NCBI GenBank assembly: GCA_030649055.1
Contig: JAUSGH010000001.1
Span: forward strand, 10,907 to 74,906
From: a bacterium
GTDB lineage: Bacteria; Patescibacteriota; Minisyncoccia; UBA6257; JAUSGH01
DNA length: 64,000 nucleotides
Reading direction: 5' to 3'
Each line of letters opens with the position of its first letter. The stretch's first letter is position 1. Made by a program: the position numbers and the translations under genes. The notes beneath the pieces are model-generated. The model saw only the letters and a program-made list of their open reading frames with translations, was not told where the DNA came from and ran no database searches. Of the stretch, positions 1-50,826 are shown piece by piece.

Positions 1-113
1 GCTTGATGCGGGGAACTCAGCCCTTCCAGACGTTCCCACGCTTGGGTGCTCAATCCCGGGCGACTTGATCCCAAGCAGAACGGTTGCCGAGTCGAAAGAC
101 AAGGTAACCGTTT

Positions 114-2597
114 CTATTTCCCATGACACTTCTTATATTTAATAGGATGTTCGCTCGCATCCTTCGCTCCGCACGGGCACGGGTCATTTCTCCCGATTTT
201 CTGACCAGGGTTGAGCGTATAGGGTTTAGCGTTTGGGATAACTGCAGGGCTCTGAATCTTTTTTTCTACTATACCCTCAACGCTAGACGCTAAACGCTCT
301 CTATTCGCACTCACCCACTCCTCAAACGTGGCGAGCAGCTGTTTGAACATAATGTGCCCCTCCCGTTTGTATTCAACAAGTGGGTCGTGCTGACCGTAGG
401 CACGGAGACGCACGGCGTCGCCCAATGCTTCCATGTCGGAGAGATGGTTCATCCAAATCATGTCCAGCATTGCCAACACGGTTGGCAATGCGGAATCAGG
501 AATTTTGAATAATGAATCAGGAGCCGCGGGCGTTTCGCTGTCGTGATTTATAATTCCTAATTCATGCTTCTCCAGCATCTCCTGCCTCTTCCTATATATA
601 GTAAGCCGCTGGCGGTTTAGGACGTCGTCGTACTCCAGCAAGTGTTTGCGGGAATCAAAGTGAAATCCTTCAACGCGGGATTGCGCCTCGCCGATGGCTC
701 GGGAGATAAGCCCTGCGCTGATGGGCATATCATCGGGAACGCTGAGGCGTTCCATAAGGCGCTTCAAGCGGTCGCCGGCAAAAATGCGCATCAGGTCATC
801 TTCCAGTGAAAGGAAAAATTGTGAGGAGCCCGGGTCCCCTTGCCGGCCGGCGCGTCCACGGAGCTGGTTATCAATGCGGCGCGCTTCGTGCCGTTCGGTG
901 CCGATGACGTGCAACCCCCCCGCGTCGCGCGCTTTCTGCGCTTCTAAAATCTCCGGCGGGTTTCCGCCCAGAATAATGTCCACACCACGGCCGGCCATGT
1001 TTGTTGCAACCGTAACTGCTCCGAGCCGTCCCGCTTGCGCGATGATGGCGCCCTCACGCTCGTTATTTTTGGCGTTCAGCATTTCGTGGCTAATGCCGGC
1101 GCGCTTCAGGCGGCGTGAGAGCTCCTCGTTCTTTTCAATGGAGACTGTGCCGATCAATACCGGCTGGCCTTTTTCGTGGCGCGCTTTGATGTCGGCGATA
1201 ATCGCATCGTGTTTCGCTTCAACGGTTTTGTAAATAAGGTCCGCCTCGTCATTGCGTATCATTTCGCGATTGGTCGGAATGGTGACCACTTCCAGTTTAT
1301 ACACCTTATCAAATTCTTCGGCGGATGTTTGTGCGGTACCGGTCATGCCGCCGAGTTTGTTGTACAAACGGAAATAGTTTTGAATGGAAATCTGCGCATA
1401 GGTGCGTGATTCCTGGTTCACGCGTACGCCTTCCTTCGCCTCTATTGCCTGGTGCAATCCGCCGGAAAAACGCCGTCCTTGCATGAGCCGTCCGGTGAAC
1501 TGGTCAACGATGATAATTTCTCCGTCTTTTGAAACATAGTCACGGTCGCGAAGGTAAAGGCCGTACGCTTTTAAGCTTTCTTGCAAGTAGTGCGTGAGGC
1601 GGAGGTTTTCGGGCGCGTAGATATTTTTGATATTCATCACCTGCTCCACCTTGTCGATGCCGGCATCGGTGATGTCGGCGGAGTGCATTTTCTCGTCAAC
1701 AAGGTAGTCCACGCCTTTTTCGAGGCGTGCGACAACGCGCGCGAATGTTTTGTAAAGCTCGCTTGATTCGCTGTCGGGCGCGGAAATAATAAGCGGAGTG
1801 CGCGCCTCGTCAATTAAAATGCTGTCCACTTCGTCGATAATGGCGTAGTGCCAGCCGCGCTGCACCTGCCGCAAAAGGTTGTTTTCCAGATTATCGCGGA
1901 GATAGTCAAAACCGAATTCGTGGTTGGTGCCGTAGGTAATGTCGGCGGCATATGCTTCACGCCGTGAAATCGGCCGGAGATATGCCTCTTGCACCAAGTA
2001 CGCGCCGGTTACGTCGCGTTCTTTATCTAACAAGGCCGACTCCGCGTGTTCGTGTTTCTGATCATTTGAATTTGTTTCGGATTTCGGATTTCGGATTTCG
2101 GATTTTGCGTGCAAATATGTGGGGTCGTATATCACGGCGCCTTCGTGAATAAGACACGCGACACTCATTCCGAGCGCACGATAAATCTGTCCCATCCAAA
2201 CGGCGTCGCGTTTTGCGAGGTATTCGTTGACGGTAACGACATGCACGCCCTCCCCTTTTAGCGCGTGCAGATACGCGGGTGCGGTTGCGGCCAAAGTTTT
2301 TCCTTCACCGGTGCGCATCTCAACAATTTTTCCCTGGGCAAGCGCGATGCCGCCCATGAGCTGCGCGTCATAATGGCGCTGTTTCAATGCGCGCTTTGCG
2401 GTTTCGCGCACAAGCGCGAACGCGCGGGGTAGAAGTGCCTCTATGGGTTCTCCTTTCCGGGCGCGTTCTCGAAGTTTTTTGCTTTCATTCAACAGAAACT
2501 CATCACCGAGCGGAGCGATCTCCGCTTCCAGCGCGTTGATTTCCGCAACGGTTTTTTTGAGTTTTTTTATTGGGCTAAACAAACCAAAAAAGTTCAT
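114..2597 (-). CDS. secA: Preprotein translocase ATPase SecA
   Basis: 827 aa translation has the SecA DEAD-motor motifs (MGGIALAQGKIVEMRTGEGKT, TVNEYLAKRD) and a C-terminal CPCG zinc-binding tail. Confidence 0.95.
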   Translation of the reverse strand: MNFFGLFSPIKKLKKTVAEINALEAEIAPLGDEFLLNESKKLRERARKGEPIEALLPRAFALVRETAKRALKQRHYDAQLMGGIALAQGKIVEMRTGEGKTLAATAPAYLHALKGEGVHVVTVNEYLAKRDAVWMGQIYRALGMSVACLIHEGAVIYDPTYLHAKSEIRNPKSETNSNDQKHEHAESALLDKERDVTGAYLVQEAYLRPISRREAYAADITYGTNHEFGFDYLRDNLENNLLRQVQRGWHYAIIDEVDSILIDEARTPLIISAPDSESSELYKTFARVVARLEKGVDYLVDEKMHSADITDAGIDKVEQVMNIKNIYAPENLRLTHYLQESLKAYGLYLRDRDYVSKDGEIIIVDQFTGRLMQGRRFSGGLHQAIEAKEGVRVNQESRTYAQISIQNYFRLYNKLGGMTGTAQTSAEEFDKVYKLEVVTIPTNREMIRNDEADLIYKTVEAKHDAIIADIKARHEKGQPVLIGTVSIEKNEELSRRLKRAGISHEMLNAKNNEREGAIIAQAGRLGAVTVATNMAGRGVDIILGGNPPEILEAQKARDAGGLHVIGTERHEARRIDNQLRGRAGRQGDPGSSQFFLSLEDDLMRIFAGDRLKRLMERLSVPDDMPISAGLISRAIGEAQSRVEGFHFDSRKHLLEYDDVLNRQRLTIYRKRQEMLEKHELGIINHDSETPAAPDSLFKIPDSALPTVLAMLDMIWMNHLSDMEALGDAVRLRAYGQHDPLVEYKREGHIMFKQLLATFEEWVSANRERLASSVEGIVEKKIQSPAVIPNAKPYTLNPGQKIGRNDPCPCGAKDASEHPIKYKKCHGK

Positions 2598-10809: not shown

Positions 10810-10810
10810 A

Positions 10811-10938
10811 CCCTGTGCTACAACTTCGATTTACCCTGTGCCACAACTTACATACGCAATTTTTGGAAGATACCTTACCTATTGAGGCGTTCGCAATGGC
10901 CATTTCCTCAATCACGTATGATTTGTTGTGGCACAGGG
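10811..10938 (-). promoter_or_regulatory. Structured 5' UTR element with mutually exclusive pairings at the start codon
   Basis: Three copies of a 14-mer. ccctgtgctacaac at 10811-10824 abuts the ATG. ccctgtgccacaac at 10834-10847 and its reverse complement gttgtggcacaggg at 10925-10938 can form alternative hairpins. A nested hairpin attgagg/cctcaat lies at 10881-10913. Confidence 0.5.
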
Positions 10939-11053
10939 TTTAAGTTTGTAATATACTTCAAGCATTTTTGAGATATCAACGCTTTGTTATAAATCCCAAA
11001 ATATCGCCTTGGCGTGCCCTACGATCGAAGTTGTCGCACGGGGCATATTTTTT

Positions 11054-11336
11054 ATTGTAACATAGAACCCATCTCAAAATATGCCTGGCCGCGATACTGG
11101 TCAATTTCGCCCGTCGCAAGGAGCGAGGACGAGAGTGTATCCACTGTGATACTCCGAGTCCGTTGCGACACTGCGACGGGCGAAATTGGCCGTATCCCGA
11201 AGGGTTGCGGTAGTTTTTGCACGATGCGGCGTTACTCCTCGGAGTTGTAGCGCTGGGGCTACAAACTCCTTCGTCGCGCCTTGCATCGTGCAAAAACTCC
11301 TCGCAACGCGGCTCAGGGATATTTTGAGATGGGTTC
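11054..11336. mobile_element. MITE-like element with 18-bp terminal inverted repeats and flanking TA
   Basis: TIR gaacccatctcaaaatat at 11054-11071 versus atattttgagatgggttc at 11319-11336. Flanked by TA on both sides (11052-53 and 11337-38). The interior holds nested inverted repeats (11093-11107/11162-11176; 11211-11226/11283-11296). No credible ORF. Confidence 0.45.
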
Positions 11337-11402
11337 TAATTGACGCCAACCCTCTATTCCTTTATATTATTATGCAGTGCAGGCAGCAACGGGAGGTGAG
11401 CG

Positions 11403-11747
11403 ATGACGTGGGAAGAATTTCTGAAGCCGGATCTCAAAGGGCGCGAGGCCGAGATCCGATGGGGTGTCGGGTCTGGCGAACGCGGGTGCATCGACAACAT
11501 CATCTACTACGCCAGGACCGGGGTCGTCTCTGTGTACTGGCGCCTCACCGCTATGCGCTGGGACGTGACAGCGCCGTGGCGGAAGGTGGGCGAGGAAAGG
11601 GGCGGTAACCTGGACGACCCCATCTTCCAGGTCGTCGGCGACCCGGAGAAGAAGGAAGACGGATCGGTGCTATTTCATTTTGGTGGTGGTGAGGTGGAGA
11701 TCTCTCCTCCTGAAGCCGACCGCCAGGCGAAGATCCTCTGTCCGTAG
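11403..11747 (+). CDS. Hypothetical protein (114 aa, GC-rich)
   Basis: Strong GGGAGG RBS 8 nt before the ATG. Confidence 0.5.
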   Translation: MTWEEFLKPDLKGREAEIRWGVGSGERGCIDNIIYYARTGVVSVYWRLTAMRWDVTAPWRKVGEERGGNLDDPIFQVVGDPEKKEDGSVLFHFGGGEVEISPPEADRQAKILCP

Positions 11748-30551: not shown

Positions 30552-30629
30552 TGGACCCGGTTTGCTTAGGCATCCGGGTCCGCTCTATTTGAAAATATGT
30601 CGGCGAAGCAGTATGATATGAATGCAAAT

Positions 30630-30771
30630 GCGCCCGTAGCTCAATGGTTAGAGCACCGAGCTTCCAATCGGCAGCGAGGATGGAGTAAAGTTGTGGCAAT
30701 GCGCCTGTAGCTCAATGGTTAGAGCACCGAGCTTCCAATCGGCAGCGAGGATGGAGTAAAGTTGTGGCGTT
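30630..30771 (+). pseudogene. Two tandem 71-bp units, each a tRNA 5' half plus a 37-nt spacer
   Basis: Unit 1 at 30630-30700 has acceptor gcgcccg, and unit 2 at 30701-30771 has acceptor gcgcctg. Both read ..gtagctcaatggttagagcaccgagctt + ccaatcggcagcgaggatggagtaaagttgtggc and lack an anticodon loop 3' side, T-arm and 3' acceptor. Confidence 0.7.
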
Positions 30772-30844
30772 GGGCGTGTAGCTCAATGGTTAGAGCACCG
30801 AGCTTATACCTCGGTGGTTCCTGGTTCGAGTCCAGGCACGCCCA
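30772..30844 (+). tRNA. tRNA-Ile (anticodon TAT)
   Basis: Acceptor gggcgtg/cacgccc, D-arm gctc-aatggtta-gagc, anticodon stem ccgag/ctcgg with loop cttatac, T-arm cctgg-ttcgagt-ccagg. No CCA encoded. Confidence 0.7.
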
Positions 30845-30890
30845 CAAATTTATTACATCCGAGCGAACCGATTGCATGCTAAAGGCATGG

Positions 30891-30927
30891 ACCTCGGTGG
30901 TTCCTGGTTCGAGTCCAGGCAGGCGCA
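30891..30927 (+). pseudogene. Orphan tRNA 3' half (anticodon-stem 3' strand, T-arm, acceptor caggcgc)
   Basis: acctcggtggttcctggttcgagtccaggcaggcgca. Its acceptor strand is complementary to the gcgcctg of 5'-half unit 2, implying a tRNA split by about 150 bp that contains the intact tRNA-Ile. A third 3'-end copy (tccaggcacgcccacaaatttta) lies at 31361-31385. Confidence 0.65.
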
Positions 30928-31639
30928 CAAATTTTATAATCAGCTTAATTGTTGATTATAAAATTTTGCGCCCGGACTCGAATGGGAAAGGGGTCGGGAA
31001 AACGGGAGTTTTCCCGTGGAGGAAGTGGACCCTATCGCAATTCTTGCTCTCGGCGCGTTGCGCTCCGCGCGCGTGAGCACAAGAAGCGACGACGAGGTTG
31101 TATGCTCTTGCATACGCCGAGGAGGAGCGACGCCGTGATTCGCGCGCGTGGTGCGCAACCCTTCGGGAAGCCGCATCTTGCCGCACATCGCAACGTTGCT
31201 CGTCGATTCATGTATCCCAGGGGATACACTTCACTCCTCGCGCCTTGCGCTGCGCCTAGCAATCTGCGGCTTCGCGCCAGAGATAAGAATTGCGATAGGG
31301 TCCGAACCGCTGGGTTTCAAAGCGCAAGCCCCGCAATGCGGGGCTGAGCAGTGAGATGTCCAGGCACGCCCACAAATTTTAAAACCAGAAGGAGGCGCGC
31401 TGTGGAAAACCCTCTTGCGCCTATGTGTCGCGATTTGTTATATATAAATGGTATGAAAAATGGTCGGCAACAGTTTACGTATGTCATGATTACGACGTCG
31501 CTTACGCGGAGGTCGCTTTCTCTTCATTCGTAACGCAGCCGATTCATACGAACGAAACAAGAAAGAGGCCTTCGCGAAACCGGAGGCCTTTTTCGTTTCG
31601 GGGCAGATTTTGTGGTTCTTTGACAATTCGGAGGTCGTC

Positions 31640-46657: not shown

Positions 46658-47552
46658 AATGATTACACTGAAATGTTGACCTTAAAGCATAACCCCTGCG
46701 GCTCCTAGTCCTCCATAAAGAGGACAATTTCCAGAGCCGCGCACAGCGGCTTTTGTCGTTGTAAGGGGACCGGTGCTGACTGAAACGAACGGACATTGAT
46801 AAACAGGATCTGACAGAAAATTCTTTTTTGTCGGGTGCTCATAAGTAAATCAATGCAAATGAAAACGCAATTTCAAGAGTATTATCGAAAGCATTCAATG
46901 CTTCGATGATCGGTTTTACTGCTCAATATCTGCATGATGGCGGAGTATTGAGTACGCCTCGTTAAGTCGCCTCAGGCGACCGCGAGGTTGCACGCGTTGA
47001 ATTCAGAGCGTGTATAAGGGCGTATGGTGGATGCCTAGACACAAAATGGCGATGAAGGACGCAGCATAACTGCGATAAGCTTCGGGGAGGTGTGTAGCAA
47101 CCTTTGATCCGGAGATTTCCGAATGGGGAAACCCTGCGCGGTAAACCCGCGTAACGCATGCGATTAAACGCGCATGTGAGCAGACCCGCTGAAGTGAAAC
47201 ATCTCAGTAAGCGGAGGAATAAAAATAGATTAGATTCCCCAAGTAGCGGCGAGCGAAAAGGGAACAGCCTAAACTTTAGTGTGTGCAGCAATGTATACGC
47301 TGGAGGGTTGCAAGGGTAAGACATTTTTGCGTATCGCAAAGCTCTCGTTAAACAGGGCTGTGCGATTCGCGGAAGATTGGTTACAAATTGCTTCGTTAGC
47401 TGAAGCTTCTGGAAAGAAGCGCCAAAGTGAGTGATAGCCTCGTAAGCGAAAACAAAGCAACCAATTCGTTTTATTTCTTAAGTACCTCGAGACCACAACA
47501 TCTCGAGGGAATCCGCCAGTACTATCTGGTAAGGCTAAATACATTTTGTGAT

Positions 47553-47589
<37 letters not shown>

Positions 47590-49458
47590 CAGCCCGGCGA
47601 GGGCGCTGAAATAGTACCTGAAACCATATGTCTACAAGGACTAGAAGTCCAACCACTGAGCAATCAGTGGCGGACAACTAGGTGCCTATTGAAGAATGAG
47701 CCAACGACTTTACGTTTACTGCTTGTCTAAGTCGCTTCATGCGACGGAGGCATAGGGAAACCGAGTGTTAATAGCGCGTTCTCTTATTTATGACCGAGTA
47801 GCTGGTATGCTTCCAGCGTTCGGTCATAGATGAGAAGGCAGTAAGTGTAAGACCCGAAGCCAAGGCGAGCTTGCCCTGACCAGGATGAACCCGAGCGAAA
47901 GCGAGGGGGAGGTCCGAACCAGTTGATTGTGCAAAATCTTTGGATGAGTTGGGGTAAGAAGTGAAAAGCTAATCGAGCTTGGTAATAGCTGGTTCTCTCC
48001 GAAATAGTTTTAGGACTAGCGTTCCGCAAAAACCGTATGGGGGTAGAGCACTGGTTGATTCGTATTGGGGGAAACCTCGGCGCATCAGTCAAACTCCGAA
48101 TACCATACGGGACGCGGGATAGTCAGACTGTGGGGGCAAAGCTCCATGGTCGCGAGGGGAATAGCCCAGACCGTCGTCTAAGGTCCCTAAATTCTTGCTA
48201 AGTGTAAAAGGTAGTCATGCCCCAGAGACAGATAGGAGGTTGGCTTAGAGGTAGCCATCCTTTAAAGAGTGTGTAACAACTCACTATTCGATGGGTCGTG
48301 GCGCCAAAAATGTACCGGGGCTAAGCAAGATACCGACGACACGGGTGTCCATGACTTCGGTCGTGGACGCGGTAGGAGAGCATTCTGATTGCTGTGAAGG
48401 TTCATCCGTGAGGAGGACTGGAGCGTTCAGGAGTGAGAATGTTGGCATGAGTAACCATCAAATCCGATGAGAAATCGGATCCCCGAAAATCCAAGGTTTC
48501 CGTGGCAATGGCAATCAACCACGGGTTAGGCGATCCTAAGGCAATGGCGAAAACCGTAGCCGATGGGTAGCCGGTTAATATTCCGGCCCGCGCTTATTTG
48601 TGCGATGGGGTGACGGAGGAAAAAAGGTTGAGCGTCTCAATGGTTTGACGTCGCTGATGATAAGGAATGTGTTCTTGGCAAATCCGGAGCACTGTGTTTA
48701 ATCGCGAATTCCGCGCGTCGGCGTAAGGCCAAGTTTTACTTGGCTAATTCAACTGAAGAGCCTTCCAAGAAAAACCTCTAAGTTTAGGATAAGCGCATCG
48801 TACCGTAAACCGACACAGGTGGGTGAGGCGAGACGCCTCAGGGGAACGAGTGAGTCTTGGTCAAGGAACTAGGCAAAAAAGCGGCCGTACCTTCGGTATA
48901 AGGCCTGCCCGTCACGCCGCAAGGTGTGCATGGGCTGCAACAAAAGTACATTTGGCGACTGTTTATCAAAAACACAGCTTCCTGCTAACTCGTAAGAGGA
49001 TGTATAGGAGGTGACACTTGACCGATGCGAGAAGGTTAACGGTGGGTGTGTATTCGAAAGCAATTTTGGATATGCTCACTGCCCGAAGCCCTCGTCAATG
49101 TCAGCGGTAACTATAACCGTTCTAAGGTAGCGCAATTCCTTTCCGGGTAAGTTCCGGAGCGCATGAATAGTGTAACGATCGAATGACTGTCTCGACCAAG
49201 AGCTCGGTGAAATTGCGATTCCCGTGAAGACGCGGGATACCTGTAACGGGACGAAAAGACCCCGGGAGCTTTACTGTAGTTTGATATTGGCTTTAACGTT
49301 TTTCTGCGTAGCGTAGTGGCGAGGGTATGAAACCTGGTTTTCGGATCAGGTGGACCCGACAATGAAACAGCCATCTGGAAAATGTTAAAATCTAACCTTT
49401 ACGGCAAAAACGTATTGGGACAGTGTCTGATGGGCAGTTTTAATGGGGCGTTATCCTC

Positions 49459-49793
49459 AACAAAACGATTGACATCCGTTCAATCGAGGGGGTTAACGTA
49501 ATAAAAAATTCAGCTATATGCTGGGACATCCGTGCATCTTCAAGTACTCGGGCGCTTCGCGCTCAGTGAAAATCTTGAAGTGGCATCCGCCAGGTGGCGG
49601 ATCGACGGACAATCAGCAGGCAACCTCCGACGGACATCGGAGAGAGTCCTCAACGACTATACGCTGAACATCGTGATGTCACTCGCGATGAAGATATAGT
49701 CTGACCTCTGTGGCGACACAGAGAGTTGTGGTAGAAATGCCGCGCCGATCACCGGCAACTAAATTTTAGAGTTGCTGGCGATGTGTAACAAAT
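49459..49793 (+). other. ORF-less insertion of about 335 nt in 23S next to the P-loop region (candidate group I intron)
   Basis: Flanking sequence reads ...ggcgttatcctc | insertion | ctaaaaagtaacggaggag. The flanks together restore the conserved GGTCTCCTCCTAAAGAGTAACGGAGGAG. Boundaries +/- 2 nt. Confidence 0.55.
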
Positions 49794-50127
49794 GCCTAAA
49801 AAGTAACGGAGGAGTTTATTAAGGTTGGCTTAGCGCGAATGGAAACCGCGCTGGACGTGTAAACGCAAAAGCCAGCTTGACGGCAAGACCTACAAGTCGC
49901 GCCGGTGCGAAAGCAGAAGTTAGTGACCCGATGATCCGTCATAGAATGGTCAGAGACATCGGCTAAAAGTTACCCCGGGGATAACAGGCTAGTCTGGTCC
50001 GAGAGTTCCTATCGACGACCAGGCTCGGCACCTCGATGTCGGCTCGCCCTAGCGCGGAGGTGGAGAAGCTTCCAAGCGTATGGCTGTTCGCCATTTAAAA
50101 GGGCACGTGAGCTGGGTTCAAACCGTC

Positions 50128-50401
50128 AACGAAAAAGAACCTAGAGAAGACATCAACAAACGGCGGCGCTTTGCCGTAAGGCAAAGCTGAGAAGTTGACT
50201 CATATCGGTGAAGTCCTACAAAATCTTTAACCTGGGTTTTGAGGATAACCCCGAGGGAAGGTCCGATGAACGTCGGACCCCCGTAGAGACTTGATCGTAA
50301 GGGATCGGAATCCGGTTTTATAATCGGGTTAATACGTCAACCCTCCGATGAATATCGGAGTGATGGTATAGTCCAAACAATTAGTAATAATTGAGTATTG
50401 C
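50128..50401 (+). other. ORF-less insertion of about 274 nt in 23S at the I-CreI-type homing site (candidate group I intron)
   Basis: Flanks aaccgtc | insertion | gtgagacaggttagtc restore the conserved AACGTCGTGAGACAGTTCGG. Boundaries +/- 2 nt. Confidence 0.55.
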
Positions 50402-50826
50402 GTGAGACAGGTTAGTCTCTACCTGTTACAGGCGTGTGATGCTTGAGGGCAGTCGACCCTAGTACGAGAGGACCGGGTTGAACGAACCTCTGGTCTACCA
50501 GCTTTAGTACCAACTGAATCGCTGGGTAGCTAAGTTCGGAAGGGATAAGCGCTGAAAGCATATAAGCGCGAAGCCTAGCCCAAGATAAGGCATCTTTCCG
50601 CAAGGAAGCAGTCCGTAGAAGATTACTACGTTGATAGGTCGCAGGTGTAAGATCAGTAATGATTTCAGCCGAGCGATACTAATAGACTGTCACACGCTCT
50701 GAATTGAGCGCATGAAAGTAGCGTTCTCTGTAGAAATATAGAGGGCGCCAGTAAAACCGATCATCAAAGCATTGAACCCCCGCCTTTCGGCGGGGGGAAA
50801 GGGTTAGAAAAAACAACCTTTTTGTT

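Follow-up and report, generated by a model that had tools for sequence, protein, structure and literature searches.

A TA-flanked non-coding repeat with a conserved four-way junction interior and ends shared with IS5-family insertion sequences

The window, the stretch of 64,000 nt (64 kb) analysed here, contains at positions 11063-11338 a small non-coding element that we assign to the MITEs of the IS5 family, with the duplication behaviour of the IS427/IS1301 group; we hold this assignment at a probability of about 0.8. The interior of the element is a four-way junction unrelated to insertion sequences (IS) and under selection for structure. MITEs are usually seen as decayed, lineage-restricted IS shells in which only the ends are constrained. 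In the family described here, the interior is the most conserved part, from the CPR (Patescibacteria) to Proteobacteria and Acidobacteriota. On this reading, the element would be an IS5-family MITE with a structurally conserved cargo that crosses phyla.

Extent of the element and its insertion site

With both TAs the element measures 276 nt, without them 272 nt. The 18-mer GAACCCATCTCAAAATAT is found at exactly two places in the 64 kb, where 0.04 occurrences are expected by chance, namely at 11065-11082 on the plus strand and as its reverse complement at 11319-11336. An earlier note, made from the letters of this DNA, had described a 283-bp element with perfect 18-bp terminal repeats. The repeat and its right arm were correctly seen; the left arm, however, had been placed at 11054-11071, 11 nt to the left of its true site, and the size has to be reduced to the values given above. 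The terminal inverted repeat reaches 25 nt at 96% complementarity (11063-11087 with 11314-11338). Its left copy (11065-11092, plus strand) forms the 5′ strand of the basal stem P1. The outer ~20 nt of this copy, with 17-19 nt of identity to the ends of IS5-family IS, are the presumed transposase-binding end, and the inner part is a conserved GCCGC. The right terminal inverted repeat (11308-11336, plus strand), delimited by repeat search, fold and IS end identity, forms the 3′ strand of P1. TA flanks as such had already been seen in the earlier note; the TAs at 11063-11064 and 11337-11338 are the two copies of the target-site duplication, as judged from an empty site in a relative and from the TA rule that holds throughout the family. 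The insertion context in the window reads ATTGTAACA-TA-[element]-TA-ATTGACG, and the element's own target is A-TA-A. Its coding capacity is limited to short, overlapping ORFs rich in Arg and Ser, in line with their earlier dismissal as artefacts.

The genome behind the window is a metagenome assembly from the CPR (Patescibacteria), close to Candidatus Harrisonbacteria. For the comparison of empty sites, which the earlier note had proposed, we used contigs of relatives that carry the window's flanking genes. In one of them (L061), the site reads ATTGTAGCATAATTGAC, that is, ATTGTAGCA-TA-ATTGAC, exactly the window sequence minus the element and one TA. The element is also absent from L064, a relative at 82% protein identity, where the site reads GCATATTCATTGACG, 3 nt off the prediction, and from L060, where 35 unrelated nt occupy the site. 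Since the sites of the relatives are empty, the element is an insertion with TA duplication and not a conserved gene.

The insertion lies between two genes, and the promoter-like sequences next to it are outside the element. To the right, a promoter-like site of a 114-aa gene (TTGACG-17-TATATT, 11340-11368, plus strand) begins 2 nt past the element and is kept in the relatives without it. To the left, an extended -10-like motif of a 374-aa gene (TGTTACAAT, 11054-11062, minus strand) abuts the element; it is conserved as TGCTACAAT just upstream of the ATG in L064 and L065 and is probably part of this gene's promoter. The 114-aa gene itself (11403-11747) had been called an orphan, which holds only in part: it has no Pfam match, and homologues at 79-81% identity are found in three related assemblies. 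In L061, a different gene of 165 aa stands in its place.

The same intergenic region carries other insertions. A second, unrelated element bounded by inverted repeats occupies window positions 10810-11044, between the ATG of the 374-aa gene and its extended -10-like motif. Its left end, ACCCTGTGCTACAACTTCGAT, and its right end, the reverse complement of 11023-11043, match at 18 of 20 positions. The 16-mer CCCTGTGCCACAACTT has two further copies inside this element, giving 4 matches in total where 0.25 are expected. The element is absent from L064 and present in L060; because its place is taken by a different inverted-repeat element in L061 and L062, we regard the intergenic site as an insertion hotspot. 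Moreover, at a site corresponding to about window position 11064 in a 74% relative (L062, positions 1-90, and L063, minus strand), the conserved ATTGTAGCACAT leads into a different GC-rich and structured stretch, TGACCCCGTTAGAAGTCGCC..., which runs off the contig. This sequence has no match to the MITE family profile and may be yet another element at the same TA.

The family and its probable source transposon

A search for additional copies, likewise suggested in the earlier note, revealed a second family member in the window at 31027-31303 on the minus strand and many near-identical copies in other genomes. The second window copy has 277 nt, a perfect terminal repeat of 19 nt, GGACCCTATCGCAATTCTT, that differs from that of the first copy, and the same four-way fold; it was detected by a weak internal BLAST match, and its TA flanks are missing. 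The two copies lie on opposite strands and are 69% identical, with compensatory differences in the stems, and the 15-mer TCCCGAAGGGTTGCG (11195-11209 in the first copy) is identical in both, on the opposite strand in the second. The family profile finds exactly these two members in the 64-kb window (E = 2e-50 and 1.9e-41). With 69% identity, a second copy without TA flanks and no matching transposase in 64 kb, the window copies look old, and both are probably immobile fossils.

The surroundings of the second copy (30620-31390) are a scrambled tRNA locus. In front of an intact tRNA-Ile(TAT) at 30772-30845 stand two 71-nt repeats (30629 and 30700), in both of which the 5′ half of a tRNA is joined to an identical stretch of 33 nt. 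Behind it come a displaced 3′ half of a tRNA (30891-30928) and, in inverted orientation, a tRNA 3′ end (30967-30982). The tRNA 3′ end also recurs as a 21-nt direct repeat (30831 and 31361), and the ~515 nt between the two repeats contain the second copy. The locus resembles what repeated rounds of integration at a tRNA gene would leave behind.

To describe the family beyond the window, we scanned one genome per species with the pattern CCCGAAGGGTTGCG-N(80-105)-CGCAACGCG. The scan returned at least 120 loci in about six phyla. Among the matches listed are Pseudomonadota, Acidobacteriota, Planctomycetota, Verrucomicrobiota/Lentisphaerae, Gemmatimonadota and Patescibacteria. The hosts listed comprise Lysobacterales (Dyella, Nevskia, Woeseiaceae, Steroidobacteraceae), Burkholderiales (Variovorax, Pelomonas, Pseudorhodoferax, Rhodoferax), Mariprofundaceae and, within Patescibacteria, Saccharibacteria, Harrisonbacteria and Paceibacterota. 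About 100 among the matches listed fold into the same architecture, mostly with a length of 266-285 nt. Four genomes were sampled with 6-15 copies each in unrelated flanks; one gammaproteobacterial assembly holds at least 13 copies and one acidobacterial assembly at least 15. Identity is 90-97% within one genome and 60-74% between lineages, i.e., 26-40% difference. Empty sites, the second copy, multicopy genomes and TA flanks thus bear out the general proposal of the earlier note, a non-coding mobile element with terminal inverted repeats and TA duplication.

Clustering of the 1,562 ORFs from the 120 listed loci gave no recurring neighbour gene, only generic families such as response regulators, ABC ATPases, an SDR and a sigma factor. 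No long repeats are common to the loci of one genome. A blastn search of PLSDB plasmids with a Burkholderiaceae copy as query gave no match, and the 58 matches of the core 15-mer in viral contigs are all due to chance, none fitting the two-copy profile. At the ends, a C precedes the left TA in 46 of the 64 clean-ended copies, and a G follows the right TA in 51 of them; from these counts, the preferred target is C-TA-G. Contexts other than CTAG, for example those of the window copy (A-TA...TA-A), L108, L112, L117 and L144, fit only a 2-bp duplication of TA.

Individual loci give some insight into the history of the copies. Two Dyella species (L154, 4274-6974, and L167, 5297-8000) share a 2.7-kb flank, 91% identical, beside a family copy at the same position, and some copies have hence been vertically inherited across species. 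In the Acidobacteriota MFD05684 (L073, L074, L107, L134, L161 and L183), several copies abut a repeat of ~180 nt that ends in ...AGTCCAGG at the same CTAG, which suggests that a second TA/CTAG-targeting element nests beside family copies there. We also looked for extra end matches in the 120 listed loci that could mark a partner element; they led only to an unrelated IS4-like insertion inside one copy, a transposase gene (389 aa) at 1416-2735 of the Burkholderiales locus L091 that sits in the right terminal repeat of the family member.

The origin of the ends became apparent from viral contigs scanned with the end sequence. These contain repeated elements with the ends TA|GAACCCATCTCAAAAA that run into coding sequence and not into the core. 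The end-matched autonomous elements are ~860 bp long and have two overlapping ORFs, DUF4096 and DDE_Tnp_1; fused, the two ORFs match the NCBIfam model NF033580, "IS5 family transposase", with 238.8 bits at a cut-off of 110. Eleven relatives of this IS were found in metagenomes, with full-length copies of 816-874 bp (four at 860-874 bp). Most of them have the ends TA|GAAGCCATCTCAAA, and their copies also fit a 2-bp TA duplication at CTAG/AYTAG-like targets. In BLAST comparisons, the ends of the window element align with both ends of the IS in L188, L190, L209 and L210 over 17-19 nt with 95-100% identity. The IS interior has no similarity to the MITE core in these comparisons, and the likeness is limited to the ends.

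Published IS427-group elements are 832-865 bp long, carry two ORFs related by a frameshift and duplicate 2 bp of their target (PMC3281130, Table 2); for IS1301, the target is AYTAG, of which the TA is duplicated (PMC2193550). The window element hence resembles IS427-group IS such as IS1301, IS1248 and ISPaes1 in the sequence type of its terminal repeats, the 2-bp TA duplication and, as a family, the preference for CTAG/AYTAG-like targets. In contrast, these IS are almost wholly coding at 830-875 bp, whereas the window element is non-coding at 276 nt and dissimilar in its interior. Lysobacterales copies show a second end type, CTAGGGAACCTCTGAACAAGT, which is also the end of a 1.2-kb IS5-group element (NF033581 at 349 bits); the L232 copy of the latter has CTAG on both sides, and 4-bp duplications are the rule in this IS5 group. 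The same core thus occurs with the ends of at least two IS5-family subgroups. The MITE copies fit 2 bp only, and the placement in the IS427 subgroup is tentative, with one end type matching a different IS5-group element.

The earlier note had proposed an IS630/Tc1 origin, i.e., a MITE of the IS630/Tc1-mariner type moved by an IS630-family transposase. A TA duplication together with a preference for CTAG is the classic IS630 signature, and both are found in the present family, along with terminal inverted repeats and the lack of an ORF. Nevertheless, we consider this origin very improbable, as every autonomous element found to carry these ends encodes an IS5-family transposase and none provides a link to IS630. 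Duplication of TA at CTAG-like sites, the feature shared with IS630/Tc1-mariner MITEs, is also the rule in the IS427 group (PMC3281130, PMC2193550). The search for an IS630-family transposase that the note had suggested was a weak test, a phmmer run with a mariner transposase sequence, and gave 0 matches in the window and the fetched loci.

As a MITE of the IS5 family, the element encodes nothing and would be moved in trans by a DDE transposase, probably of the IS427 type, that recognizes the terminal repeats of 20-25 bp and inserts the element at TA, preferably within C-TA-G, with duplication of the TA. No cognate transposase gene was found by tblastn in the 64-kb window or the 120 listed loci; mobilization by an IS5 enzyme hence rests on end identity with elements from other samples.

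Structure and conservation of the core

The element folds as a perfect four-way junction with zero unpaired bases at the junction. The terminal repeats form stem P1 (element positions 1-30 with 246-276). P2 and P4 are two hairpins of ~104 nt that enclose a central mini-hairpin P3. The P2 arm, or hairpin module M (11093-11196, element positions 31-134, plus strand), was delimited by fold and covariation. It consists of a variable but perfectly paired outer stem, a conserved purine-rich section of non-Watson-Crick character (CGCAAGGAGCGAGGAC versus GTCCGTTGCGAC) and an apical hairpin. P3, CC-GAA-GG (11197-11203, element positions 135-141, plus strand), lies inside the conserved 15-mer, between P2 and P4. 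The P4 arm (11204-11307, element positions 142-245, plus strand), with GTTGCG...CGCAAC at its base, was placed by fold, covariation and the symmetry of the profile. The nested internal inverted repeats that had been noticed before correspond to two long pairs, 11099-11118 with 11172-11191 (20 nt, 95%) and 11212-11227 with 11283-11298 (16 nt, 100%), and to the apical hairpins; that they make up a four-way junction conserved among phyla had escaped the earlier note.

As RNA, the plus strand folds with -174.9 kcal/mol (z = -17) and the minus strand with -161.1 kcal/mol (z = -15.5); as single-stranded DNA, the two strands reach -99.3 and -96.2 kcal/mol, both with z about -14 relative to shuffles. 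Only 3 of the 113 pairs in the window element are G·U. P4 repeats the conserved sections of P2 as their reverse complement, which makes the element two-fold symmetric, and the profile also matches at half-length on the opposite strand (E = 6e-16). The layout of the core is end, GCCGCG, M, CCC-GAA-GGG, M′ (the reverse-complemented module), CGCGGC, end. From this symmetry it follows that either strand presents M and then M′. The C-GAA-G at the centre is the core motif of d(GCGAAGC), a mini-hairpin of very high stability; the other strand reads cUUCGg.

Covariation was assessed on 56 dereplicated copies aligned on sequence alone, from which RNAalifold recovers P1, P2, P3 and P4. Standard pairs fill 88.1% of the cells, compared with 62.7% after shuffling and 33-41% when the partner is slid by 1-3 columns. 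Changes on both sides of a pair were counted in 756 cells, versus 252 in shuffled alignments and 205-271 with a slid partner. The covariation score amounts to 0.599, versus 0.158 for shuffled alignments, none of 500 of which reached the observed value, and 0.10-0.13 for slid partners. Part of the apparent invariance of the core stems from the search pattern, which imposes CCCGAAGGGTTGCG and CGCAACGCG. Independently of the pattern, conservation is found in the GCG of inner P1, in AAGGCGCGAGGAG paired with CGACGAGCAACG in P2 and in GCGTTGC...CTC paired with TCGTCGCGCCTTGC in P4. In 31-32 of the 56 lineages, module M has two tandem G·A/A·G mismatches enclosed by Watson-Crick pairs; the rest mostly have Watson-Crick pairs there. 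Across phyla, conservation is higher at unpaired and non-canonical positions than in the stems.

Hairpins may also become complementary without any function if their arms are homogenized by template switching or repair within hairpins, in which case the core would be a frozen accident. Pairing that is almost wholly Watson-Crick on both strands is indeed what is expected of arms that copy each other. Such an origin would leave unexplained why loops and non-canonical positions are more conserved across phyla than stems, why arm lengths and the total length (mostly 266-285 nt) are tightly kept, and why the same core occurs with at least two end classes; furthermore, the P2 and P4 stems differ within one element. 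Given the conservation of the loops and the differences between the arms of one element, we think homogenization without function improbable.

Neither strand of the element is preferred. Over 60 copies, the difference in fold energy between the strands has a mean of 0.86 kcal/mol (sd 7.8); one strand folds better in 29 copies and the other in 31, and G·U makes up ~5% of pairs on either strand. With respect to the flanking ORFs, 21 copies are co-directional, 20 opposite, 22 in a convergent and 26 in a divergent arrangement; for this tally the element was masked, since spurious ORFs inside GC-rich elements confound it. No T-tract or terminator-like site is predicted in the region of the window copy. 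The lack of a strand or orientation bias argues against a strand-specific RNA gene and fits a DNA structure or a direction-independent RNA.

A structured non-coding RNA gene that resides in the chromosome and does not move is accordingly hard to credit. The very strong covariation and the conserved loop sequences are what such a gene would show. However, orthologous sites in close relatives are empty, copies are flanked by TA duplications, single genomes hold many near-identical copies in unrelated contexts, and the ends are common to insertion sequences. The earlier note had reserved the RNA explanation for a single copy in conserved synteny, and what we find are empty sites and multiple copies; this pattern refutes an RNA gene as the sole explanation. 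In Rfam, no match was obtained at the gathering thresholds, and at permissive thresholds three family members and the window gave only chance matches to miRNA-like hairpins, those of the family members scoring far under the gathering cut-offs. Several known structured elements were rejected as well. A retron ncRNA disagrees with the absence of a reverse transcriptase gene beside either window copy and of any recurring neighbour, a hairpin or twister-sister ribozyme with the missing Rfam match and the equivalence of both strands. Integron attC sites, IS200/IS605 ends and replication origins do not account for inverted ends with a TA duplication, for dispersed copies or for ends identical to those of DDE IS.

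Possible roles of the core

We tentatively prefer to see the core as a DNA hinge or cruciform and not as a strand-specific RNA. The ~220-nt cargo between the ends is not derived from an IS, and either of its strands folds into the four-way junction. Extruded hairpin arms could form a compact, flexible junction that brings the ends, ~220 bp apart, into one synaptic complex; if the element were single-stranded, its two ends would anneal to each other as one duplex. The conserved loops fit a sequence-specific protein or RNA partner at least as well as a purely mechanical role.

Another possible, if doubtful, role of the IS5-family MITE lies at the RNA level, where the core would work on host read-through transcripts independently of orientation and lower the cost of insertion, for example as a 3′ stabilizer, as a terminator or insulator, or as an RNase III-type processing site. 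Effects of this kind on mRNA are known from other bacterial MITEs (Correia, ERIC, RUP). By its symmetry, the element gives M and then M′ on either strand, and the transcript would be nearly the same both ways; the RNA folds are extremely stable, and copies are intergenic in all gene arrangements. Such a role is at odds with the lack of a predicted T-tract terminator in the window copy region and with the rarity of G·U pairs and the absence of a strand preference, and both the tandem G·A pairs and the CGAAG mini-hairpin would suit DNA just as well.

Beyond the hinge that we favour, a broader and rather unlikely proposal would be that the ~220-nt core is a functional nucleic-acid module that different IS5-family transposons, in about six phyla, have carried along or have captured more than once between their ends. 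As such, it might be the true substrate of transposition in a folded, cruciform or single-stranded state, a structure-dependent mode that is not known for DDE transposons of the IS5 family, or it might bind a conserved protein of the host or transposon through the tandem G·A loops.

Small, non-coding, intergenic multicopy repeats bounded by inverted repeats are known from other bacteria, namely Correia/NEMIS in Neisseria, ERIC/IRU in enterobacteria, RUP in pneumococcus and RIME in rhizobia. Several of them are TA-flanked, and several fold stably on either strand. Each is confined to a genus or family and consists of a single hairpin or two simple palindromes. In contrast, the family of the window element spans about six phyla with more than one end class, and it keeps a four-way junction and conserved loops by compensatory change. 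We found no description of the core motif or of the family in the literature searched, which covered the topics MITE, IS630 and cruciform. A different architectural parallel is provided by the T- or Y-shaped DNA hairpins of parvovirus terminal repeats, Streptomyces telomeres and single-stranded phage origins, which include d(GCGAAGC) mini-hairpins. They are alike in having two palindromes inside an outer stem, in using sheared G·A pairs and a mini-hairpin of the type C-GAA-G, and in forming on either strand. These hairpins, however, are replication structures at genome ends or origins, whereas nothing ties the chromosomal, TA-flanked repeat to replication; the likeness is architectural only.

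If the core aids the transposition of very short elements, or if it offsets its own cost via an orientation-independent effect on transcripts, this would explain how a non-coding parasite persists in reduced genomes of ~1 Mb. In either case, the core would also lend itself to engineering as a compact module of natural origin. In the annotation of GC-rich genomes, family copies readily give rise to false calls of structured RNAs and of ORFs. The window also contains a group I intron at 49461-49723 in the 23S rRNA gene (47004-50703), identified with Rfam RF00028 at 75 bits; group I introns in 23S rRNA genes are typical of bacteria of the candidate phyla radiation.
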